A stretch of 39,794 bases of DNA from a virus. Below are positions 4,605-37,957 of the stretch, one piece after another. The stretch is from UHGV virus genome UHGV-0220445; one strand, written 5' to 3'. The translations under genes were made by a program, and so were the position numbers. Below the pieces are notes generated by a model. The model searched no databases. It was given only the letters and a program-made list of their open reading frames with translations, and was not told the DNA's origin. Numbering within the stretch: position 1 is the first letter of the stretch; every line of letters starts with the position of its first letter.

Positions 4605-4631
4605 GCCCCGCCATCCTTACGGGGCTTTTTT
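4605..4631 (+). terminator. Intrinsic terminator (gccccg-ccatcctta-cggggc + TTTTTT)
   Basis: GC stem followed by T6. Confidence 0.65.
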
Positions 4632-4636
4632 GTATT

Positions 4637-4652
4637 GTAAGTACATACTTAC
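4637..4652. promoter_or_regulatory. Palindromic motif GTAAGTAcaTACTTAC (late-type element)
   Basis: Member of a motif family recurring before structural genes. Confidence 0.45.
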
Positions 4653-4695
4653 GATCATAGAATATAAAAATAACCAATACACTACGGAGAGTGAA

Positions 4696-5091
4696 ATGAC
4701 CATTAAACGCGAAAAACTGACAGTTGATGTTTACTATGCCTCTGAAACCGCCGAAGGTAAGAATGTGGCAAAAATCACCGTTGTTACGTACAACACCGAA
4801 ACTGGTGCCGAAGTCCAGGCCAGTACGATCGTGCGTAAAGGTGATGCCTCCGACGGCGAGTACGCGACTCAATACCAGTCTATTTTCGATGCAACTGACC
4901 CGCTGCTGCTGAAAATCGAGAACTACTTCCGCCAGGTTGATGAAGAGGTGTTTGAACCAATGATGAATATGGTTAACACCGTATTCGCCTCCAACCTGAA
5001 TACCAACACTACCTGGATTGGTCAGTACGGCCTGCGCATTACCTCCGGCATTCCTGCCGAGACCTTAATCCCTGAAAGCGTATTCGCTTAA
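4696..5091 (+). CDS. Hypothetical protein (131 aa), moron-like unit between two terminators
   Basis: ORF track (4630..5091); ATG 4696 follows SD ggagag. Confidence 0.55.
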   Translation: MTIKREKLTVDVYYASETAEGKNVAKITVVTYNTETGAEVQASTIVRKGDASDGEYATQYQSIFDATDPLLLKIENYFRQVDEEVFEPMMNMVNTVFASNLNTNTTWIGQYGLRITSGIPAETLIPESVFA

Positions 5092-9003: not shown

Positions 9004-9525
9004 TTAAAACGGAAGGATTCGTTCAACCCAATCGAAGAAAACAAGTATTTTTCTGCCGTCTTCTAACTTAAGAGTGACCTGGCAAGCATCAACGCCTCTT
9101 GATACCCCTTCTATTTCACGACCGTCTGCCATGTAGACCCTTATAGATTGGTCGTTTTGATAAGCCTTGCGACATATCGCAAAAAAGTCACGACGTGATG
9201 GCTGATTAACCATCTGTTCATTGTTCAGTGTTAGTCGACCTGTGAATGAAGTGTCAACCTCTTCTATGCCTGACTCAATTGTGCTAATGCGCTCAAGAGG
9301 GAGCCTTACACGATTTGTGTTGCTAAACGGATCTGGTGTGAGGTTCAGCTTATTTCTTGCGCTCAACAGCCCGTAGACATACATGCAAAACACTTGGCCG
9401 TCTTCGAGAGTGACTCTTACAGGAAATTTTGCACTCCGCCAGAAGAGCAAGGTGCGCTCAGCATGTTCGTAGTCTCGCGGCCAGACTTCAGCCGGTATGC
9501 CGTAGGTGATGTCCAATGTTTTCAT
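9004..9525 (-). CDS. Hypothetical protein (173 aa)
   Basis: ORF track; start overlaps the stop of the upstream gene. Confidence 0.5.
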   Translation of the reverse strand: MKTLDITYGIPAEVWPRDYEHAERTLLFWRSAKFPVRVTLEDGQVFCMYVYGLLSARNKLNLTPDPFSNTNRVRLPLERISTIESGIEEVDTSFTGRLTLNNEQMVNQPSRRDFFAICRKAYQNDQSIRVYMADGREIEGVSRGVDACQVTLKLEDGRKILVFFDWVERILPF

Positions 9526-10115
9526 TCTGATACTCTTAGAGGTGTTTTCAGCAACCCAAATTTAAATTCTTTGTTACCAACGACAAAGAAGGGAACCTCA
9601 ACATAGATTTTTTTATCGACGGATTTAGAGTTCGCTGTTTTCTGTATGTCACGAACGATACGTTTTGAGGTATTTTCATCGATAAACAATACCTTTCCAC
9701 TTGTATTCCCTTCAGCCTTGGCGTAAGTAACGATAGGGTCTTCATTGCCAACCCTAATGTTTACTTGGCAACCTGTTGTAGCCATTTCATCACAGTAAAG
9801 TGTGCCGTCTTGAACTTCTAAAACAATTCCAGATGGCTTCATGGCTTCGTCAGAGCTTACATTAACGTTTTCTGGTACAGCGGTCCCGTTAATTTGCAAC
9901 CGTAATCTTTCTTTTCCTGCATTAAGTATTGTTTCTTCTGCGTTATCTGAGAATCTGAACCAGACTGGTTGAATCAGACCTCGTGATTCGTATTTTAGTA
10001 CGTCTTCAGAAGTATACATGCTGTACGTTTTTTGCATGTCGGAGACGATATCTGACAACGCATTTGCGGAAAATGACGAGAGGTATATACAAGCAAGAAG
10101 TAACGAACGTTTCAT
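9522..10115 (-). CDS. Secreted/periplasmic protein with N-terminal signal peptide (197 aa)
   Basis: N-terminus MKRSLLLACIYLSSFSANA: basic n-region, hydrophobic core, AxA cleavage motif. Confidence 0.55.
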   Translation of the reverse strand: MKRSLLLACIYLSSFSANALSDIVSDMQKTYSMYTSEDVLKYESRGLIQPVWFRFSDNAEETILNAGKERLRLQINGTAVPENVNVSSDEAMKPSGIVLEVQDGTLYCDEMATTGCQVNIRVGNEDPIVTYAKAEGNTSGKVLFIDENTSKRIVRDIQKTANSKSVDKKIYVEVPFFVVGNKEFKFGLLKTPLRVSE

Positions 10116-10200
10116 TTTTATACAGCGATTATTGCAAAGTAGAATTATAAATATCCAATAGTCTCAAACGATAAGTTTTCAACTGTAAATAGCAGACGTG

Positions 10201-10240
10201 TTTCTCTAAAAGCTGTGCGGCAAAGGCGTTGTTGCCGCAC
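10201..10240 (-). terminator. Intrinsic terminator on minus strand (gtgcggcaa / ttgccgcac stem + AGCTTTT)
   Basis: 9-bp stem followed by T-run on minus strand. Confidence 0.5.
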
Positions 10241-10295
10241 TCTGTCTATTAGCTCTTCAAGTCTGGCAATTCTGAAATTGACTAAGAATCCAATA

Positions 10296-10574
10296 TTACG
10301 GCAGTTTGCTTAGAATTTGCTCTAAATCTTCCTTTGTCATATTAGAGTTCTCATAGATGCGCATGATTTTCTCACGAGCCTTAGCAGAGACTCCAACGGC
10401 AGATGAAACTTTGTCAAATTCAGCCATTGTCATCGCTTCCAGAATGGTATTGATAACTTCAGCCTTAGACATTTTGATGTTTTTTTCTTTTAGTTTCATT
10501 TGAAACTTTCCAAGTTTGTCATTGGCCTTATCGGACAATGCCACCTGACAATAAGTTGTTTTCTTTTCGCTCAT
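10296..10574 (-). CDS. Hypothetical protein (92 aa), translationally coupled to helicase
   Basis: ORF track; starts 2 nt after the helicase stop. Confidence 0.45.
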   Translation of the reverse strand: MSEKKTTYCQVALSDKANDKLGKFQMKLKEKNIKMSKAEVINTILEAMTMAEFDKVSSAVGVSAKAREKIMRIYENSNMTKEDLEQILSKLP

Positions 10575-12136: not shown

Positions 12137-12182
12137 AAACCTCTTTCCTTAGTGCCTTTTGTATGTTATTTGGCTATTATAA

Positions 12183-12200
12183 TAAGTAAGTGATTACTTA
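12183..12200. promoter_or_regulatory. Palindrome TAAGTAA-gtga-TTACTTA in the 64-bp divergent intergenic region
   Basis: Late-type palindrome family. Confidence 0.45.
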
Positions 12201-12218
12201 GTGGATTGTAGCAATAAA

Positions 12219-12899
12219 ATGGATGTAAAAATCACGATTTTGCAGGTTGATGTTGCCAACCTTCGCCCGAATACCTGGAACACCAATTCGGTTGGTGCGC
12301 AGAATTTTGAAAAACTGAAAGGTTCTATCGAAAAATTGGGCTTTTTTAAGCCAATTTTGGCTCGTGAACTTGAAGATGGATTTTTTGAAATCCTCGGCGG
12401 CGAACATCGCTGGCGTGCTGCTATTGAGCAAGGAATTTCAACGGTTCCGGTGCTTTCTGTGGGCAAAATTAGCGATGTCGTAGCTAAACAGATGTCACTG
12501 GTGGACAACGAGCGATACGGTGAAGACGACCAAATCGCATTGCAACGCTTCATTGAAGAAATTCAGTCAGAACTTGACTATCAACTGTCTGAAATCGCCC
12601 CGTATGACGACGAAATCTCGATGGTTTTAGCAAAAGAGGCGGCAATCGACCTTGAAGCACTGGAGGCGTTGTCTCGTGGTAGTGATGAGCCTGTCGATAC
12701 CGACAAACGAGAGAAAACCGAACGTGTGGGTGCGGAACATCAGACCATGCGCTTCAAAGTAACTTTCGATGCGTCAGATCGTGTTGCAGAAACCATAAAA
12801 AACATCATCAAAGAGCAGGCTATTAACACCGGTAATGAAATGGAGAACGCTGGTGAGGCTCTGGTGTGGCTGGTCGACTACTACAAGGAGCGTATGTAA
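12219..12899 (+). CDS. ParB/Srx-fold (ParB N-terminal domain-like) protein
   Basis: ParB box-like motif ILGGEHRWRAA; ORF track 12201..12899 (GTG); ATG 12219 chosen. Confidence 0.6.
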   Translation: MDVKITILQVDVANLRPNTWNTNSVGAQNFEKLKGSIEKLGFFKPILARELEDGFFEILGGEHRWRAAIEQGISTVPVLSVGKISDVVAKQMSLVDNERYGEDDQIALQRFIEEIQSELDYQLSEIAPYDDEISMVLAKEAAIDLEALEALSRGSDEPVDTDKREKTERVGAEHQTMRFKVTFDASDRVAETIKNIIKEQAINTGNEMENAGEALVWLVDYYKERM

Positions 12900-13567
12900 T
12901 GACCAAAAAGTTTGAAATCGTATATCGCGACCCGGCAGATCTTATTCCCTATGAGATGAATGCCAAAAAGCATGATGAACAGCAGATCCGAGATCTGGCC
13001 GCAGCCATTAAAAAGCGCGGATTTGACCAGCCAATTACGGTCGATAAGAACGACGTAATTATTACTGGCCACGGCCGCCGTGAGGCTGCAATTTTTGCTG
13101 GACTTGAGCGCGTGCCGGTTATTGTTCGCGATGATCTGAGTGATGACGAGGTACGTGCAAAGCGCCTTGAAGATAACCGACTTGCCAGCATTGATTACGA
13201 TGCAATTAAGCTACAGAAAGAGCTTGAGTCGCTTGTTCTGGACGATATCGAGGTTTTCGGCTTCGAAGAGCGTGAGTTGAATGTTCTCGTTGGCAGTATG
13301 ACAGAAGAAATGGACACCGACTCGCTAGTTATCGATCTTGGCGAAGAAACTAAACGACAGAAGGATGAACACACCGAGATCAGTCGTGAAGTTGCAGCGG
13401 AAGAAGTACGTGTTGTCGACGTATTGGGCTTTAAAACGCTCCCTGCTGGCTCTGCCATTGTTGTTGGTGATTTGCTTGCCCATATGGAAGAAATGACGGG
13501 AGAAAGCGGGGTAGACGCATTTGTGGCATATGCGGAGAAGATCTCTTCCGGGGAGATGGCTGCATGA
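12899..13567 (+). CDS. Second ParB/Srx-fold protein (paralog)
   Basis: Motif ITGHGRREAA; ATG overlaps upstream stop (ATGTAATG). Confidence 0.6.
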   Translation: MTKKFEIVYRDPADLIPYEMNAKKHDEQQIRDLAAAIKKRGFDQPITVDKNDVIITGHGRREAAIFAGLERVPVIVRDDLSDDEVRAKRLEDNRLASIDYDAIKLQKELESLVLDDIEVFGFEERELNVLVGSMTEEMDTDSLVIDLGEETKRQKDEHTEISREVAAEEVRVVDVLGFKTLPAGSAIVVGDLLAHMEEMTGESGVDAFVAYAEKISSGEMAA

Positions 13568-14229
13568 GCAAATACATCATCAACGTATCGTTTCAGACAC
13601 GCGTAAATAAAACCACGCGCACGTTGGAAATCGCTGAGTCGTTCGGGCTTGGCCTGGACGAAAAAGAGTGGACGCTTTACGACAATCTGGAGCTGGAAGT
13701 GAAGCAGGGCGATGTGGTGTACATCACCGGCCAATCCGGTTCCGGCAAATCCGTTGTGCTGCGCGAGTTGCAACGACAGATGAAGGATGAAGGGCTGTCT
13801 GTAGCCTCCATCGATGATTTTACCTTCGATAATGAGGTTAACGTCATCGATCAGTTGGGCAAAACGACCAGTGATGCGCTTGGGTTGTTATCTATGGCTG
13901 GTCTGAACGATGCATATCTGTTTGTTCGCAAGCCTTCTGAAATGTCAGACGGCCAGAAATATCGTCTCAAGATTGCCAAACTGATTGAGTCAGGCGCTAA
14001 AGTATGGGCTGCTGACGAGTTCGGCGCTGTTCTCGACCGTGTAACCGCTCAGGTTGTGGCGTCTAACCTCCAGCGTGCCGCTCGAAAGGTTGGTGCGACG
14101 GTAATGGTGGCGACGACTCACGAAGACCTGAAGAACGCGCTGCGCCCTGATATGCAGATCACCAAGCACTACAAAGAACGCGTGAAGGTGGAATATCACA
14201 ATGGTAGTCATGATGAGGTCCATTCATGA
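13564..14229 (+). CDS. ABC-type ATPase, nucleotide-binding domain only (221 aa)
   Basis: Walker A GQSGSGKS, signature-like MSDGQKYR, Walker B VWAADE, H-loop ATTHE; ATGA overlap upstream. Confidence 0.65.
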   Translation: MSKYIINVSFQTRVNKTTRTLEIAESFGLGLDEKEWTLYDNLELEVKQGDVVYITGQSGSGKSVVLRELQRQMKDEGLSVASIDDFTFDNEVNVIDQLGKTTSDALGLLSMAGLNDAYLFVRKPSEMSDGQKYRLKIAKLIESGAKVWAADEFGAVLDRVTAQVVASNLQRAARKVGATVMVATTHEDLKNALRPDMQITKHYKERVKVEYHNGSHDEVHS

Positions 14230-15116
14230 CGGACATCATCATTAAACGCTACCGCCCTGAAGAGTTTCCGCGTCATCTGGACTTTCTGGAGCGAATGACT
14301 GTTACAAAGGGAACTGTAGAGGACTGGCACGCTCTTAAGTCGCTTCACTACAAAACAGACGGCAAACCTTTCGCGCCAACTTACTATCGCTGCGAACTTG
14401 ATGACCGTCTGGTGGGCGTCGTGGTTATGGCTTACCCGAAACTACTGTTGGCACCTCGCCACCGCATGTTTCCTAAGTTGAAACCAACCACTAATACCAC
14501 CGTGGCTAACCAGTACTGGGGTCGGTACGTGAATAACAACTTTGCGGTGATCAGTCGCTCAGTTGTGGATACTCAGTATCGTGGCGTAGGCGTCTCTTAT
14601 CGAATGATTAACCTGGTTAGCAGGATGCATGACCGGCCAATCATTGAGATCCAGTCCTCGATGAGCAAATACAATCCCTTCGCCATGAAAGCAGGGTTTA
14701 AGTTCATCCGCCCTGAGCGACCGAAGAGCTATGAAAGTGCACTGCGTGTGTTCCAGCGCCATTTCCGCTCCGACCCGGGTGATAACGAGGCGATCGTTAA
14801 AGAGTTGTTCGCTATGAGCGAGTCTCGTCGTCGCCGTGCACTGCGTGATCTGGTGGCGGACTACCACAAGAACAGTTCCCTGGCAAAAGCAGGGCGGAAT
14901 CGTGGCACGACGATTCAGGACATTGCCGACAGTCTGGTGGACGAGGCCAGCATTGTGAAGCTGCTCAAGGACATTCACAACCTGAGCTTTACGTCTCCGT
15001 TGTATGGTGTGTACCGAAACCCTGACTTTGGCCGTCGACTGCCTGAAACGCTGCCACTGCTGGCATTCGACAAACAACCTTTGGATAAACCGTTAGAAAT
15101 TGCTTTACCGGCATAA
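14226..15116 (+). CDS. Hypothetical protein with possible GNAT-like acyltransferase core (296 aa)
   Basis: Pattern VGVVVMAY ... FAVISRSVVDTQYRGVGVSYRMINLV resembles the GNAT acyl-CoA binding motif; tentative. Confidence 0.35.
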   Translation: MTDIIIKRYRPEEFPRHLDFLERMTVTKGTVEDWHALKSLHYKTDGKPFAPTYYRCELDDRLVGVVVMAYPKLLLAPRHRMFPKLKPTTNTTVANQYWGRYVNNNFAVISRSVVDTQYRGVGVSYRMINLVSRMHDRPIIEIQSSMSKYNPFAMKAGFKFIRPERPKSYESALRVFQRHFRSDPGDNEAIVKELFAMSESRRRRALRDLVADYHKNSSLAKAGRNRGTTIQDIADSLVDEASIVKLLKDIHNLSFTSPLYGVYRNPDFGRRLPETLPLLAFDKQPLDKPLEIALPA

Positions 15117-15125
15117 GGATTTGCC

Positions 15126-15392
15126 ATGACGTTAACCGATAAACAAAAGGACATCATCAAAACGCTCAATCTCGGTTATGAGCGAGGTCATCTACTTGAC
15201 CTGGACGAATTGCTTGAAGTTTTGCCGTACAAGACAACCAAGCAAAGTATCCAGTTCTCAATTCGCGCTCTGATAAAAAAGGGGCTGGTGGAGAAAGGGC
15301 ATACGCGCCAACGCAGTGACAATCGCTATCACCGCCGGACTCTTGGGTTAACCACTTTAGGTCGAGCCAAAGCGAAGTTACTGGTGATGTAA
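15126..15392 (+). CDS. Small basic protein, possible winged-helix DNA binder (88 aa)
   Basis: ORF track; size and charge only. Confidence 0.35.
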   Translation: MTLTDKQKDIIKTLNLGYERGHLLDLDELLEVLPYKTTKQSIQFSIRALIKKGLVEKGHTRQRSDNRYHRRTLGLTTLGRAKAKLLVM

Positions 15393-15416
15393 TCGGTCTG
15401 GGAGCTTATTTAAAGA

Positions 15417-15471
15417 CCTGCTTCTGTATATATAAATAATAAGTAACTTATTAAATATATACGGAAGCAGG
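15417..15471. repeat. ~55-bp imperfect AT-rich palindrome with GC clamps (cctgcttc ... gaagcagg)
   Basis: Core aataagtaacttatt belongs to the late-type palindrome family; ~115 bp upstream of terminase small subunit. Confidence 0.7.
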
Positions 15472-15505
15472 CTTCGTAAGACATGCCAGACCTAATTAAA
15501 CACCC

Positions 15506-16220: not shown

Positions 16221-17476
16221 TGGCAATCCCGTCCTCGCTCAGTCTTGTGCAACTGCATTCTGGACAGATGAAAGTCTTCCAGTCTCCGCATCGATTTAAA
16301 GTTGTTTGTGCTGGTCGACGCTGGGGAAAATCCCGGTTGTCGATCTCCACTATTATTCGTGCGGCGGCAAAGGAAAAAAAGCAAAGAGTCTGGTATGTCG
16401 CTCCTACTTACCAGATGGCTCGCCAGATTTTGTGGGACGATCTACAGGAAGTTCTGCCTCGTAAGTGGGTTAGGAAAAAGAACGACACCACGATGACAAT
16501 CGTGTTGAAGAACGGTTCGGAGATCGCCCTCAAAGGTGCTGATAAGCCTGACACTCTGCGCGGCGTAGCGTTGCATTTTGTAGTGCTTGATGAATTTCAG
16601 GATATGAAGGCTGACACCTGGTACAAGGTGTTACGACCTACTCTTTCATCGACACGCGGCGGTGCACTGATCATTGGTACGCCAAAAGGCTTCTCGGAAT
16701 TTCACAAACTGTGGACTATAGGCCAGAACGTAGAGCTGCAAAGAAAGGGACAGTGGAAGAGCTGGCAGTTTGTAACTGCCGATTCTCCGTTTGTACCTAC
16801 GGCGGAAATTGAAGCTGCTAAGAACGATATGGACCCGAAATCGTTCGCTCAGGAGTACCTGGCGAGCTTTGAGAACATGTCCGGGCGCGTTTACTACCCG
16901 TTCGATCGTAACGTGCATGTAAAACCGCTTCAGTTCAACCCTCGGTTGCCTATATGGGTAGGGCAGGACTTCAACATTGACCCGATGTCTTCAGTAATTT
17001 TGCAACCTCAGCCAAATGGTGAGCTATGGGCAATTGATGAATTGGTGCTCTTTTCCTCTAACACGGCAGAGGTTTGTGATGAGCTTGAGAGACGCTTCTG
17101 GCGCTGGAAATCACAGATAACGGTATTTCCAGATCCGGCAGGTGCTTATCGCCAACATGCTCGCGGGGAGTCTGACGTCGACATATTCAAAGAGAAGGGA
17201 TTCTTACGTGTCGATTATTCGAAAAAGCACCCGCCAATTGCGGATCGTGTTAATGCTGTTAACCGAATGCTGATGACCGCATCTGGAGATATCCGGCTGT
17301 ATATCGATCCGAAGTGCAAGCATTTGATTGATTCACTGGAAAAAGTCATCTACAAGCCTGGAACACGAGATATGGATAAGACAGGTGGCATTGAGCATAG
17401 TGCAGACGCATTGGGCTATCCAGTACATCGTAGGTATCCAGTCAAAAACCGTGTTATTCTTGGTGGTTCTCGATAG
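16220..17476 (+). CDS. Terminase large subunit
   Basis: Walker A VVCAGRRWGKS, Walker B FVVLDEFQD; followed by portal. Confidence 0.85.
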   Translation: MAIPSSLSLVQLHSGQMKVFQSPHRFKVVCAGRRWGKSRLSISTIIRAAAKEKKQRVWYVAPTYQMARQILWDDLQEVLPRKWVRKKNDTTMTIVLKNGSEIALKGADKPDTLRGVALHFVVLDEFQDMKADTWYKVLRPTLSSTRGGALIIGTPKGFSEFHKLWTIGQNVELQRKGQWKSWQFVTADSPFVPTAEIEAAKNDMDPKSFAQEYLASFENMSGRVYYPFDRNVHVKPLQFNPRLPIWVGQDFNIDPMSSVILQPQPNGELWAIDELVLFSSNTAEVCDELERRFWRWKSQITVFPDPAGAYRQHARGESDVDIFKEKGFLRVDYSKKHPPIADRVNAVNRMLMTASGDIRLYIDPKCKHLIDSLEKVIYKPGTRDMDKTGGIEHSADALGYPVHRRYPVKNRVILGGSR

Positions 17477-17492
17477 GTAAGTAATTATCTAA
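17475..17492. promoter_or_regulatory. Late-type motif taGGTAAGTAATTATCTA upstream of portal
   Basis: Near-identical to the motif at 20897-20914. Confidence 0.45.
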
Positions 17493-17502
17493 GGTTATTC
17501 AA

Positions 17503-19077
17503 ATGGAATTGAACGACAAACAAATTAAGGATCTGGTGGCGCGACGCCACCCGGAATACGAAAAGAAAAAAGAACATTGGGACTTCCTCGCCAGCACTTA
17601 CGCTGGCGGGCGTGGTTGGTTTACAGACAATATCTTTCGTTACTTTAAAGAGGGAGATCAGGAGTTTAAGGAGCGAGTTGAACGTGCTTATCGCTTCAAC
17701 CACACTCGTGAGGTGGTAAACCTCATCAACAAATATCTCTTTAAAGAAGACATTCATAGAAATATCGAAGAGGCACCAGAGCAGATCCGCAATTTCTGGA
17801 AACGTGCGACTCGCCAGAATGCCTCTATTGACTCATTTATGGCCGCTATTGATTTGCAGTCGTCTATTTACGGTCGCATATGGGTTGTTGTCGATAGCAC
17901 GATGAGTGGTGATGTTGAGTCAGTAGCTGACGAGAAAAAGAAAGATGCTCGCGCCTACGCCTACTGGATTTCACCTCAGCAAATGCTGGATGTGGCATGG
18001 GACGACGACGGGAATATGTTGTGGGCGTTAATTGTGGAAGTCGCTCGTGATGACGCAGATCCTTTTACTTCTACAGGTCAGGAATACCAACGTTATCGTC
18101 TGTGGACACAAAACGAGTGGTATCTGTTCCGTGAGGAAGTGAAGAAGGGCGCTGGTGGAGCAGGTCGCCGTCAGGCAAAAGTTATTTTAGAGGATAGCGG
18201 TGAGCATAATCTCGGCGTAGTTCCTGTGTTTCCTGTTGATTGTATTGGAGAAAGTGAATCACCGTATTTCAGCCCATCGTTGATCGATGATATCGCTTAT
18301 CTTGATCGTGCGGTTGCAAACTATCTGTCAAACCTTGATGCCATTATTCAGGATCAGACATTTAGCCAGTTGGCTATACCGGTACAGTCGCTTTTACCTG
18401 GTGATGAAAACCACACTAAAGTGCTTGAAATGGGCACAAAGCGAGTCTTCACCTACGATTCTGAAGGCGGAAACCAGCCGTTTTATCTGTCACCAGACCC
18501 GAAACAAGCTCAGATGATCATCACTACGATTAAGACGGTGATTAACGAAATCTACCATTCAGTTGGTGTAGCTGGTGAGCGAACGAAGCAGGACAACGCA
18601 CAGGGAATCGATAATTCATCTGGTGCCGCAAAAATGTATGACTTCCAGCGTGTAAATAGCTTGCTTGTCACAAAAGCAGAGCGTCTGGAAAGGGCTGAAC
18701 GCCAAATCATGCTACTGGTTGCGAAATGGATGGGGGCAGATCTGGACGAAGACCACTCTTTAATTGCGTATCCAGAAAGTTTCGATATTCGTGGCCTTAC
18801 TGATGAATTTTCTGTTGCCGAGAAACTGTCATTACTTCAGGCACCGGACTCTGTACGTCGTCACCAGATGGAAATGCTTATTGAGAAGATTTTCCCGAAC
18901 ATTACTGAGGCGATGAAAAAGGAATTTGATAAAGATCTCTTGAATTTTCCTCCAAAAAATGATCTAAATACCCTTGAAAATAAGTCAGTACTTACTTATG
19001 ATCGTGGTACGGCCCAAGAAAGCGGGCAAGATCAACCCCGAGGGAATGGGGACTCATCTACTCAAGAGAACGAGTGA
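17503..19077 (+). CDS. Portal protein (524 aa)
   Basis: Size and position between terminase and scaffold. Confidence 0.7.
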   Translation: MELNDKQIKDLVARRHPEYEKKKEHWDFLASTYAGGRGWFTDNIFRYFKEGDQEFKERVERAYRFNHTREVVNLINKYLFKEDIHRNIEEAPEQIRNFWKRATRQNASIDSFMAAIDLQSSIYGRIWVVVDSTMSGDVESVADEKKKDARAYAYWISPQQMLDVAWDDDGNMLWALIVEVARDDADPFTSTGQEYQRYRLWTQNEWYLFREEVKKGAGGAGRRQAKVILEDSGEHNLGVVPVFPVDCIGESESPYFSPSLIDDIAYLDRAVANYLSNLDAIIQDQTFSQLAIPVQSLLPGDENHTKVLEMGTKRVFTYDSEGGNQPFYLSPDPKQAQMIITTIKTVINEIYHSVGVAGERTKQDNAQGIDNSSGAAKMYDFQRVNSLLVTKAERLERAERQIMLLVAKWMGADLDEDHSLIAYPESFDIRGLTDEFSVAEKLSLLQAPDSVRRHQMEMLIEKIFPNITEAMKKEFDKDLLNFPPKNDLNTLENKSVLTYDRGTAQESGQDQPRGNGDSSTQENE

Positions 19078-20887: not shown

Positions 20888-20896
20888 TCAGTGAAG

Positions 20897-20914
20897 TAGA
20901 TAAGTAATTATCTA
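20897..20914. promoter_or_regulatory. Late-type palindrome TAGATAA-gtaa-TTATCTA
   Basis: Palindrome family. Confidence 0.45.
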
Positions 20915-20919
20915 TGTTA

Positions 20920-20947
20920 AAGGGTGGGCTATACGCCCACCCTTTTT
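20920..20947 (+). terminator. Intrinsic terminator after capsid gene (gggtgggc-tatac-gcccaccc + TTTTT)
   Basis: 8-bp GC stem plus T5. Confidence 0.7.
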
Positions 20948-24082: not shown

Positions 24083-24466
24083 GTGTTTATTGAAGCGTTT
24101 GCAAGTTTGATGCAGAAGGCAAAGATTGGCACGGTCGGGACTGACATTTTCTGTCACTACTTGCCTGCCAATGTGAAATCTGGCGTCCTGCTTATTAACC
24201 CAAATACCGGCATCAGCATCGATCATGAGCTACAGGGCTTTTATCACGAATCATTCACAATCATTGTGCGTGGTTCGTCAATTACTACGACGGTTGAGAA
24301 AGCCAATAAAATCATTGAGATGTTTCCAGTAGAGGAAACGGAATCTGGTGGTGTTTATTTTCGACTGGTACGACCGATGGCGATGCCAATCATTTATCCC
24401 AAAAATGATGGAGCATTAATAGAAGCAGGCATTCCAGTTGAATTTGCTGGCTATTTATTGAATTAA
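24083..24466 (+). CDS. Hypothetical tail completion-type protein (~127 aa)
   Basis: ORF track (23960..24466); GTG 24083 follows SD gagagg. Confidence 0.4.
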   Translation: MFIEAFASLMQKAKIGTVGTDIFCHYLPANVKSGVLLINPNTGISIDHELQGFYHESFTIIVRGSSITTTVEKANKIIEMFPVEETESGGVYFRLVRPMAMPIIYPKNDGALIEAGIPVEFAGYLLN

Positions 24467-24474
24467 GTTAATCG

Positions 24475-24490
24475 GTAAGTATATACTTAC
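24475..24490. promoter_or_regulatory. Perfect 16-bp palindrome GTAAGTATATACTTAC upstream of major tail gene
   Basis: Self-complementary; late-type family. Confidence 0.5.
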
Positions 24491-24540
24491 TGTTAGCGCA
24501 ATGAATGCGTAGAATTAACGGAAAAAGGAGTTTTCCATCA

Positions 24541-30967: not shown

Positions 30968-30972
30968 GTATC

Positions 30973-30997
30973 TAGATAAGTAAGTACTAATTTACTA
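30973..30997. promoter_or_regulatory. Late-type motif tagataagtaagtactaatttacta
   Basis: Palindrome family. Confidence 0.4.
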
Positions 30998-31049
30998 TCA
31001 TTGTGGCGCTGACAGGATGTTAGCGCCTACTTATTTCAAGGATGAAACA

Positions 31050-31748
31050 ATGGGAATTAAAGCTGATATTCAGAGCTTATCTCCCTCTGCACTCATTGAG
31101 TTGTTCGTACTGGATATGTCGAACACAACTTCAGGGGGGAAGCTATTCTTCCACGCCGGAACAAACGAACTGATGCAACCGGTCGTCTGGCAAGGAGTGA
31201 CATACGAGCCGTGGCCAATCAAAGCATCAGGCTTTGACAAAACGGGCCAGGGAACGTTGCCACGTCCAAAAATTCAGGTATCGAACTTTGCCGGAACTGT
31301 CTCTGCGGAAGTTCAGGCAAACGACGATCTTGTTGGCTGCCGCATTATTCGCAAGATGACGCTGGCTCGCTTCCTCGATGCCGTTAATTTTAAAGACGGC
31401 AACCCAACAGCAGATCCAAACCAACATTTCCCGGATGAAATGTGGTTTATCGAACAGAAAACTCTCGAAACTCATCAGGTTGTCGAGTTTGAATTGTCCA
31501 GTGTGTTCGATTTGATGGGGGTGCAACTTCCGTATCGTCAGATCATTAAAAACACCTGCCCGTGGAAATACCGAGGGCCAGAATGCGGCTATACCGGTCC
31601 ATATTTCGACAAAAATAACCAGCAGACGTCTATGTCTGGTGCGGATTACTGCACAAAACGTTATGACGCCTGTAATGCGCGTCGGAATTATTTTGCCGAC
31701 GGAGTGATCCATTTTGGCGGATTTATTGGAGCTACGCGGTATGGGTAA
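31050..31748 (+). CDS. Minor tail protein (lambda gpL-like) with C-terminal Cys cluster
   Basis: Cys motif CPWKYRGPECGY...YCTKRYDACNARRNYF; ORF track 31017..31748, ATG 31050 chosen. Confidence 0.7.
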   Translation: MGIKADIQSLSPSALIELFVLDMSNTTSGGKLFFHAGTNELMQPVVWQGVTYEPWPIKASGFDKTGQGTLPRPKIQVSNFAGTVSAEVQANDDLVGCRIIRKMTLARFLDAVNFKDGNPTADPNQHFPDEMWFIEQKTLETHQVVEFELSSVFDLMGVQLPYRQIIKNTCPWKYRGPECGYTGPYFDKNNQQTSMSGADYCTKRYDACNARRNYFADGVIHFGGFIGATRYG

Positions 31749-37864: not shown

Positions 37865-37899
37865 TGGTGGAAAAAAATTTTTATATCGGTAAAAATAGG

Positions 37900-37913
37900 T
37901 AAGTATTTACTTA
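37900..37913. promoter_or_regulatory. Late-type palindrome TAAGTA-tt-TACTTA upstream of tail fibre gene
   Basis: Palindrome family. Confidence 0.45.
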
Positions 37914-37957
37914 ATGGCGGGCAAGGATAACCCGCCAAATCAAGGAGCATATTCAAC

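Follow-up and report, generated by a model that had tools for sequence, protein, structure and literature searches.

A conserved intergenic palindrome of SSU5-like phage-plasmids resembles the binding site of the host protein SlmA

A recurring palindrome in the window and its relatives

The virus genome UHGV-0220445 was analyzed as a single stretch of 39,794 nucleotides (hereafter the window) that, judging from its similarity to known elements, is derived from an SSU5-like phage-plasmid. It shares approximately 98-99% identity with Escherichia phage Cyrano, against 81% with Salmonella phage SSU5 and 78% with Klebsiella elements such as pJN2-26. Its host was inferred from these nearest relatives. 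The region also matches 775 plasmid records from Klebsiella, Escherichia, Enterobacter, Yersinia, and Salmonella. SSU5-like elements are common, and some of these plasmids bear resistance genes. Our subject is an AT-rich palindrome that recurs in the window, mostly between genes, and that we have followed through the genomes of Cyrano, SSU5, and pJN2-26 (elements of 103-110 kb), each of which was fetched whole.

An original prediction, made from the letters of the window alone, described the exact 16-mer GTAAGTANNTACTTAC (GTAAGTATATACTTAC) at positions 24475-24490, listed related palindromes elsewhere, and proposed that these are late promoters or operators recognized by a phage-encoded activator or sigma-like factor. 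The recurrence of the palindrome is borne out by a motif enrichment test of the kind suggested with the prediction: 11 overlapping matches with no more than three mismatches are present where 0.92 are expected, and none of 100 dinucleotide shuffles reaches this number. A scan of the window found the 16-mer where it had been described and a second exact copy at 4637-4652. With the family 20-mer ATARGTAAGTACTTACYTAT, seven matches with up to four mismatches are found against an expectation of 0.04. The sites listed at 12183, 17475, 20897, 30973, and 37900 are genuine members of the family. By contrast, 15437-15451 falls outside it and corresponds to the loop of an approximately 100-bp composite hairpin that is present in three copies per genome, and the best-matching copy, at 18980-18999 in the 3′ end of the portal gene, had been overlooked.

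The best common register for the copies of the three genomes is centered on AAGT/ACTT, where the slash marks the center here and in the sequences below. The consensus is a 28-bp palindrome, AATnATArGTAAGT/ACTTACyTATnATT, that is composed of 4-nt units and has an inner 20 bp of ATArGTAAGT/ACTTACyTAT. The 16-mer represents the same pair of half-sites with four additional central bases. In this register, the window carries eight copies:

4629-4656, TTTGTATTGTAAGT/ACATACTTACGATC: immediately 3′ of a terminator; includes the exact 16-mer at 4637-4652.
12178-12205, TATAATAAGTAAGT/GATTACTTAGTGGA: in the intergenic region between divergent UvsW-like and ParB-like genes.
17469-17496, CTCGATAGGTAAGT/AATTATCTAAGGTT: between the stop codon of TerL (17476) and the start codon of the portal gene (17503); a perfect left half is paired with a degenerate right half, and SSU5 and pJN2-26 have a good palindrome at the equivalent site.
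18976-19003, GAAAATAAGTCAGT/ACTTACTTATGATC: within the 3′ end of the portal gene; 11 of 14 pairs are palindromic, and the copy is invariant in all three genomes.
20892-20919, TGAAGTAGATAAGT/AATTATCTATGTTA: after the major capsid gene, with an intrinsic terminator (20922-20945) immediately behind it; no other window copy matches less well, although its pJN2-26 orthologue is palindromic at 14 of 14 pairs.
24467-24494, GTTAATCGGTAAGT/ATATACTTACTGTT: contains the exact 16-mer at 24475-24490 and lies upstream of the tail-tube gene.
30972-30999, CTAGATAAGTAAGT/ACTAATTTACTATC: between M-like and L-like tail genes and followed by a GC-rich hairpin (31005-31027).
37891-37918, AAAAATAGGTAAGT/ATTTACTTAATGGC: between J-like and tail-fiber genes and followed by a GC-rich hairpin; conserved in SSU5.

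Each of the complete genomes of Cyrano, SSU5, and pJN2-26 carries 20-26 AT-rich copies in syntenic positions, with the cleanest examples present in pJN2-26, where the copy behind the capsid gene is the perfect palindrome AATAATAGGTAAGT/ACTTACCTATTATT. The Cyrano genome is 87% coding, and 25 of its 26 copies are intergenic. Under a stricter pattern the proportion is 20 of 21, against 0.19 copies expected under a background trained on intergenic sequence. In alignments of the window with SSU5 and pJN2-26, the palindromes appear as conserved islands within otherwise diverged spacers. A search of IMG/VR with the exact 20-mer returned 39 loci, all of which are SSU5-like.

The motif had been described as preceding structural and packaging genes, which holds for the portal, tail-tube, L, and fiber genes and extends to the genes for scaffold and holin. 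However, copies also precede genes of an early type, including those for helicase-primase, ligase, SSB, SbcCD (including SbcD), RNR, ThyX, and Dam. Moreover, a core copy, GGTAAGnnCTTACC, precedes the putative prophage repressor gene CYRAN_45, where it lies just 3′ of a conserved TTTACA-16-TAATAT promoter. This copy is invariant across the homologues found, in every relative examined and down to 66% protein identity. Because copies precede replication, recombination, nucleotide-metabolism, and putative repressor genes, the motif is not a mark of late genes alone. The distances to the next start codon, which had been given as 25-90 bp, measure 10-62 nt in the window: approximately 10 nt for the portal gene, 19 nt for the ParB and L genes, 44 nt for the fiber gene and the gene at 4696, 50 nt for the tail-tube gene, and 47-62 nt for the Ig-like gene, from which the palindrome is separated by a terminator.

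The two arms of the palindrome are conserved to a nearly equal extent (8.6 versus 8.2 matches of 10, p = 0.065), with A at position +12 in 44 of 68 downstream arms versus 26 of 68 upstream arms, such that the downstream arm tends toward TATnAT. When an RNA-hairpin signature was sought, G·U-compatible mismatches on the sense strand (66) were not favored over A·C mismatches (55), and the folds of the sense and antisense strands proved equally stable. The near equality of the arms and the lack of these asymmetries therefore point to a symmetric double-stranded DNA site that sometimes doubles as a -10 element.

Promoter overlap and expression of the adjoining genes

Four of the eight window copies (at 4642, 18989, 24480, and 30985) overlap sigma-70-like sequences that match the consensus hexamers at 9-10 of 12 positions and are oriented on the coding strand. 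The copy at 18976-19003 fills the spacer and -10 element of TTGAAA(18974-18979)-17-TATGAT(18997-19002), which scores 10 of 12. The copy at 4629-4656 overlaps the -35 element and spacer of TTGTAA(4635-4640)-17-TAGAAT(4658-4663), and that at 24467-24494 covers the spacer and -10 element of TTGAAT(24458-24463)-18-TATACT(24482-24487), each of which scores 9 of 12. The hexamers and spacing of all three promoter matches are preserved in SSU5 and pJN2-26, and so the earlier statement that none of the palindromes has a convincing -35 hexamer does not hold for all copies. The fourth, TAGATA-17-TATCAT (30973-31001, 9 of 12), is overlapped by the copy at 30972-30999.

The position of the palindrome relative to these promoter elements is far from constant. 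Its center lies at approximately -19.5 for the 18974 promoter, -27.5 for the 4635 promoter, and -13.5 for the 24458 promoter. At the ParB operon, a perfect TATAAT (12178-12183) abuts the copy and places the center near +2 of the predicted promoter, and at the putative repressor gene the center is near +8.5. Overall, the distance to the best conserved -10 element varies by up to 14 bp. The copy at 17469-17496 is not the promoter of the portal gene because it is too near the ATG codon. This variable geometry appears incompatible with a stereospecific activator and, to the extent that the predicted promoters are a guide, fits the occlusion of RNA polymerase or a block to its elongation. Thus, because the palindrome moves with respect to the promoters, its binding partner would be an occlusion-type protein rather than a positioned activator. 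A fixed activator geometry was rejected given these shifting positions and the near symmetry of the arms.

GC-rich hairpins directly follow three of the palindromes, at 24495-24511, 31005-31027, and 37915-37935. Their stems covary among the window, SSU5, and pJN2-26 (e.g., GCGCA/TGCGT, GCACC/GGTGC, and GTGTC/GACAC, in which the slash separates the two strands of a stem), and the predicted start site of the 24458 promoter falls at the base of the first, a 5-bp hairpin. These structures are likely to be 5′-untranslated region or processing elements of the tail-tube, L, and fiber mRNAs.

Published transcriptomes of strain LF82 (PMC9928086 supplement) provide a view of expression in a lysogen, in which the genes behind palindromes are at background and expression is seen for CYRAN_45, for toxin-antitoxin genes, and for a few others. 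Where a lytic gene comes after an expressed one, expression in the lysogen falls across the palindrome, from 55 to 6 between CY30 and CY31, from 44 to 9 between CY34 and CY35, and from 31 to 7 between CY64 and CY65. In macrophage-grown LF82, expression instead rises across some palindromes, by approximately 2.5 log2 units from CY11 to CY12, 3.5 from CY55 to CY56, and 4 from CY59 to CY60. These data are coarse, and they agree with an arrangement of promoter-operator cassettes. Of the two functions originally proposed, the operator therefore finds support, both from the overlap with sigma-70-like elements and from the silence of the genes behind palindromes in lysogen RNA-seq. No such support exists for a late promoter that depends on a phage activator or sigma-like factor, given the copies before early-type genes and the putative repressor gene.

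In the Cyrano lysogen, the ParA operon is expressed, whereas the ParB-like operon, a separate unit, is silent. In the window, the corresponding operon (12219-15392) lies upstream of terS and encodes ParB, a ParB-nuclease, an ABC ATPase, an acetyltransferase, and a small DNA-binding protein. Because it is at background expression in Cyrano lysogens, this operon is probably a lytic-phase module for packaging or DNA modification rather than a plasmid partition system. ParB or a KorB-like global repressor had been considered as a binder of the palindrome, and this candidate was rejected because of the same silence.

Candidate binding proteins

SlmA is a host TetR-family nucleoid-occlusion factor. 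Its binding site (SBS, for SlmA-binding site) was given by Tonthat et al. (PMC3020112) as GTGAGTACTCAC, with positions 1, 2, 4, and 5 strict, any purine accepted at position 3 (a change of G to A gives a Kd of approximately 60 nM versus 50 nM), and any pyrimidine accepted at position 6. The phage core GTAAGT/ACTTAC obeys the resulting core rule, GTRAGYRCTYAC (GTRAGY/RCTYAC, with G, T, A, and G required at positions 1, 2, 4, and 5). The consensus SBScons, a 24-mer of Cho et al. that we take in the form quoted in PMC4423959, is AAGTAAGTGAGCGCTCACTTACGT, with halves GTAAGTGAGC and GCTCACTTAC. When the quoted sequence is set center to center against ATArGTAAGT/ACTTACyTAT, 8 of 10 positions agree in each half, with one of the two differences at the outermost base, the core differences fall at the tolerated positions 3 and 6 as purine and pyrimidine swaps, and the TAAG/CTTA that flanks the 12-bp core is shared.

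Against an 18-mer drawn from the literature only, the validated E. coli sites SBS17 and SBS12 have three and four mismatches, respectively, and the eight window copies, in order of position, have 4, 1, 4, 1, 5, 4, 2, and 2. The same two natural sites each have two mismatches to the core rule, and the window copies have 1-3 (one at 4629-4656, 12178-12205, and 37891-37918; three at 20892-20919). The right half of the copy at 37891-37918, ATTTACTTAA, equals the right half of SBS17, ATTTACTTAC, at 9 of 10 positions. Perfect core copies number 0 in the window, 1 in Cyrano, 3 in SSU5, and 6 in pJN2-26, where approximately 0.1 are expected, and copies with one core mismatch number 5, 13, 14, and 12, respectively, where approximately 2 are expected. 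A generalized 18-mer pattern with up to three mismatches finds 7 copies in the window, 21 in Cyrano, 26 in SSU5, and 23 in pJN2-26 (no more than 0.8 expected); 69 kb of P1 contain no such site, and lambda has two weak matches.

Other lines of evidence lead to the same family of proteins. A scan with the family 20-mer of one genome per species revealed 13 unrelated genomes with one copy each, some of which have a G+C content of 70-75%. The exact sequence ATAAGTAAGTACTTACTTAT is present in 12 of these, which range from Planctomycetota to Streptomyces, and the thirteenth carries a one-base variant. These copies (for example, L113:3405-3424 and L115:7758-7777) often lie between a TetR-family gene and a divergent gene, and in at least five genomes the neighboring divergent gene encodes a TetR-family regulator of approximately 200 amino acids. 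No TetR-family open reading frame was found in the window, Cyrano, SSU5, or pJN2-26. The slmA gene is present in E. coli K-12, and Tonthat et al. (PMC3020112) reported that the recognition helix is conserved and that SBS are predicted for Salmonella, Klebsiella, and Enterobacter. Given the consensus match, the link to TetR genes elsewhere, the lack of a TetR gene in the phage-plasmids, and the presence of SlmA in their hosts, SlmA is the most likely binder. A host protein of this kind also stands in contrast to the phage factor originally envisaged, and a symmetric 28-bp palindrome is not the type of target that is used by a sigma factor.

It is known that an SBS placed over a promoter represses a reporter, and that SlmA binds its sites as a dimer of dimers. 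The 4-bp spacing of TAAG/TGAG elements, which the palindrome shares with E. coli SBS, is as predicted for binding of this type, and we infer that the 4-nt periodicity of the palindrome arises from two offset dimers that together make four helix-turn-helix contacts. The variant with four additional central bases would set two TAAG/CTTA elements 11 bp apart, which is the span of one dimer. A comparable arrangement is offered by QacR IR1, a 28-bp palindrome with ATAG...CTAT outer elements like those seen here. QacR IR1 belongs to the TetR-family operators that are bound by two dimers, but in the phage-plasmids there are many copies and no TetR gene in cis, rather than one autoregulatory operator.

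With these considerations in mind, we favor, with moderate confidence, the explanation that the palindromes form a dense genome-wide array of SlmA sites that act as operators or roadblocks and possibly also affect host division. Each candidate site would be bound by a TetR-type protein, most likely SlmA as a dimer of dimers. Since copies span the -35 element, spacer, -10 element, or start site of predicted sigma-70-type promoters, or else occupy gaps between cistrons, the bound protein could occlude RNA polymerase or block read-through and thereby keep the lytic genes silent in the low-copy plasmid state. SBS-bound SlmA is the active antagonist of FtsZ, and a multicopy plasmid that bears SBS draws SlmA away from the nucleoid and inhibits the assembly of Z rings. 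It is therefore reasonable to speculate that the array might extend nucleoid occlusion to the plasmid, and that lytic amplification of the DNA could both free the promoters of SlmA by titration and bring host division to a halt.

Several observations weigh against this explanation. Strict matches to the core rule are few in the E. coli-type elements (the window and Cyrano), and many copies have one degenerate half. Nearly all copies have A at position 3 and conserved ATAG/CTAT flanks, features that could be the signature of another protein whose specificity is related. The generalized 18-mer used for the counts above admits R/Y at two outer positions that were drawn from the phage sites themselves, and the promoters are predictions that consist of consensus matches only. 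Chromosomal SBS are mostly within genes and are reported to lie outside promoters, unlike the phage-plasmid copies. Finally, the phage itself offers two candidate DNA-binding proteins, CYRAN_45 and the protein encoded at 10296-10574. The lysogen expresses both genes, and a copy of the palindrome lies in the promoter region of each.

Indeed, the alternative that survives best is that the palindrome is the dispersed operator of one of these two proteins acting as a phage repressor, which would silence the plasmid prophage much as the P1 C1 operators or the stoperators of mycobacteriophage L5 do. Those systems likewise place tens of copies in prophage promoters or short gaps and keep lytic genes silent. 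The XRE-type CYRAN_45 reaches an expression value of 96 in the lysogen, where background is approximately 10. It is absent from SSU5, which was called virulent in its genome announcement, and the core copy described above lies just behind its own conserved promoter. The 92-amino-acid protein encoded at 10296-10574 has a lysogen expression value of 114 and is conserved in all three genomes, and variable promoter geometry would suit any repressor equally well. However, the 20-bp agreement with the SlmA consensus, including its tolerated positions and flanks, would then be a coincidence. Furthermore, CYRAN_45 is only 56% identical between Cyrano and pJN2-26 and yet the motif is identical, SSU5 retains 26 good copies without this gene, and the identical palindrome neighbors TetR genes in other bacteria. 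The C1 (17 bp) and L5 gp71 (13 bp) sites are asymmetric, and those of L5 are orientation-dependent, whereas the palindrome is symmetric over 20-28 bp. No homologue of P1 C1 was detected by BLAST in the window or Cyrano. On balance, we consider a phage repressor rather unlikely, though well worth keeping in view; if one does bind, the motif would still define the immunity regulon of the SSU5-like family.

The 92-amino-acid protein is encoded on the minus strand, has an N-terminal strand-helix-helix region (YCQVAL...MSKAEVINTILE), and corresponds to CYRAN_117 in Cyrano. It may be a ribbon-helix-helix regulator, since it aligns weakly with CopG across this region (pairwise E = 0.014), although the hhalign probability for this assignment is 3% and the mean AlphaFold pLDDT is 55. 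Profile searches of Pfam and the Protein Data Bank (PDB) with this protein gave no informative match, and the same was true of PDB-sequence searches with CYRAN_45 and with the 88-amino-acid "DNA-binding" protein encoded at 15126-15392. Upstream of the small gene that is divergent from the putative repressor gene, Cyrano carries tandem 21-bp repeats, TGATATGAATGTATTCAGTAT and TGATATAAATTTTAGTAGTAT (42748-42789), which may be a second, local type of operator in the immunity region.

A further possibility is that SlmA binds the candidate sites without any transcriptional role and serves only division control or plasmid positioning, with the copies intergenic because an AT-rich palindrome cannot fit coding sequence. 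SlmA is reported not to act via transcription in E. coli (PMC3020112), the known effects of SBS-bound SlmA on FtsZ and of plasmid-borne SBS on SlmA localization would suffice for such a function, and many phages block host division. However, half of the window copies overlap sigma-70-like promoters on the coding strand, their positions relative to promoter elements are conserved across 20% divergence, and the copy in the portal gene demonstrates that the site can sit in coding sequence. We therefore regard a purely non-transcriptional role as unlikely.

Less probable still is the activator-dependent promoter, in which the palindrome would replace the -35 element as in the late promoters of P1. 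These Lpa- and SspA-dependent promoters (AAGTnACTT, 4 bp, and a -10 element) contain a 9-bp "-22 box" and present an AAGT/ACTT inverted repeat immediately 5′ of a -10-like hexamer in many copies on a phage-plasmid. The half-sites are thus common to both, most of the palindromes lack a good -35 element, the downstream arm tends toward TATnAT, and expression in macrophage-grown LF82 increases across some palindromes. Nevertheless, the palindrome is longer, its half-sites are separated by 0 or 4 bp rather than 1 bp as in P1, it is not restricted to late genes, and it keeps no fixed distance to conserved -10 elements (its center ranges from approximately -27.5 to +8.5). The copy at 24475-24490 lies over the -10 element itself (TATACT), and several others belong to predicted sigma-70 promoters so close to consensus that no activator should be required. 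For some copies (portal, L, and ParB), the start codon is only 10-20 nt away, and another is directly ahead of an intrinsic terminator. P1 Lpa had no match in the window by tblastn or blastp, and the sole match in Cyrano (E = 0.29) is to a gene that is absent from the window, such that neither appears to encode a homologue.

The weakest candidate, RNA hairpins that act in polycistronic transcripts as RNase III or other processing sites or as translational operators, might be suggested by the intergenic positions, the overlap of several copies with ribosome-binding regions, and the covarying hairpins that follow several of them, but it is very improbable given the mismatch and folding results above, the conservation of the sequence itself beyond its pairing, and the placement of the repressor-gene copy on the opposite strand.

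If SlmA is indeed the binder, as we favor, then the phage-plasmids use a familiar site in an unfamiliar way. The family consensus is the same type of 20-bp palindrome as E. coli SBS, and the known hosts (Escherichia, Salmonella, and Klebsiella) all have SlmA. However, the E. coli chromosome carries 24-52 SBS per 4.6 Mb, of which 2 of 24 are intergenic, whereas the phage-plasmids carry one site per 4-5 kb, a density approximately 20-45 times higher, and their copies are mostly intergenic and often in promoters. They also have A rather than G at position 3 and flanks that extend further (ATAG/CTAT, and AT-rich to ±14). Cyrano is present at approximately 5.5 copies per cell, and therefore the plasmid would offer more sites than the chromosome during lysogeny, and thousands during lytic replication.

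From this, a broader proposal can be made. Perhaps SSU5-like phage-plasmids have co-opted SlmA as a copy-number-sensitive global silencer, with approximately 25 sites that also shield the plasmid from septum closure, and with amplification titrating SlmA and stopping host division without a dedicated phage inhibitor. We offer this extended model tentatively and consider it possible but on the whole doubtful. In the literature on regulation in SSU5, pHCM2, or Cyrano, or on SlmA in connection with phage or plasmid genomes, we found no paper describing the motif or the link. The type of site is known, and a dense, promoter-associated array on a mobile element would be new. Should SlmA prove to be the binder, this would be the first mobile element with a dense array of nucleoid-occlusion sites, the second transcriptional role for SlmA after Pchb in Vibrio, and a link between prophage control and the host division machinery. 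The motif also provides a handle on the silencing of approximately 100 kb of lytic genes, with approximately 25 regulatory sites per genome and a candidate binder that has already been purified and is well studied.

Other features of the window and its relatives

The composite inverted repeat whose loop had been listed among the palindromes spans 15395-15495 and consists of TCTGGGAG ... CCTGCTTCTGTATATAT, an AT-rich loop, and ATATATACGGAAGCAGG ... CCAGA, with a predicted folding energy of -48 kcal/mol. Its three copies in Cyrano are located near 31184, near 78111, and at the ends of the record, and SSU5 and pJN2-26 carry it as well. Both ends of the SSU5 record fall within the loop of this repeat, as do those of the Cyrano record, shortly before terS. 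The repeat may serve in packaging or as a centromere-like site.

The minus strand at 9004-9525 encodes a full-length FljA-like "repressor of phase-1 flagellin" (PF03614, E = 3e-69) that is conserved in the three phage-plasmids. The only segment of the window without a match in Cyrano is 9513-10292, where an open reading frame at 9522-10115 (197 amino acids, phrog_18942) replaces the lipoprotein and CYRAN_116 genes of Cyrano.

Lastly, a conserved 29-bp palindrome of a different sequence, TGATTCCATACCTAcTATGTATGGAATCA, is present in Cyrano (approximately 40960-40990) and pJN2-26 (approximately 88865-88893), with CYRAN_43, a gene expressed at a very high level, on one side and the integrase gene on the other. 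It resembles a recombination site of the lox/dif type, and in pJN2-26 a consensus LexA box, CTGTATATAAACACAG, is located nearby.

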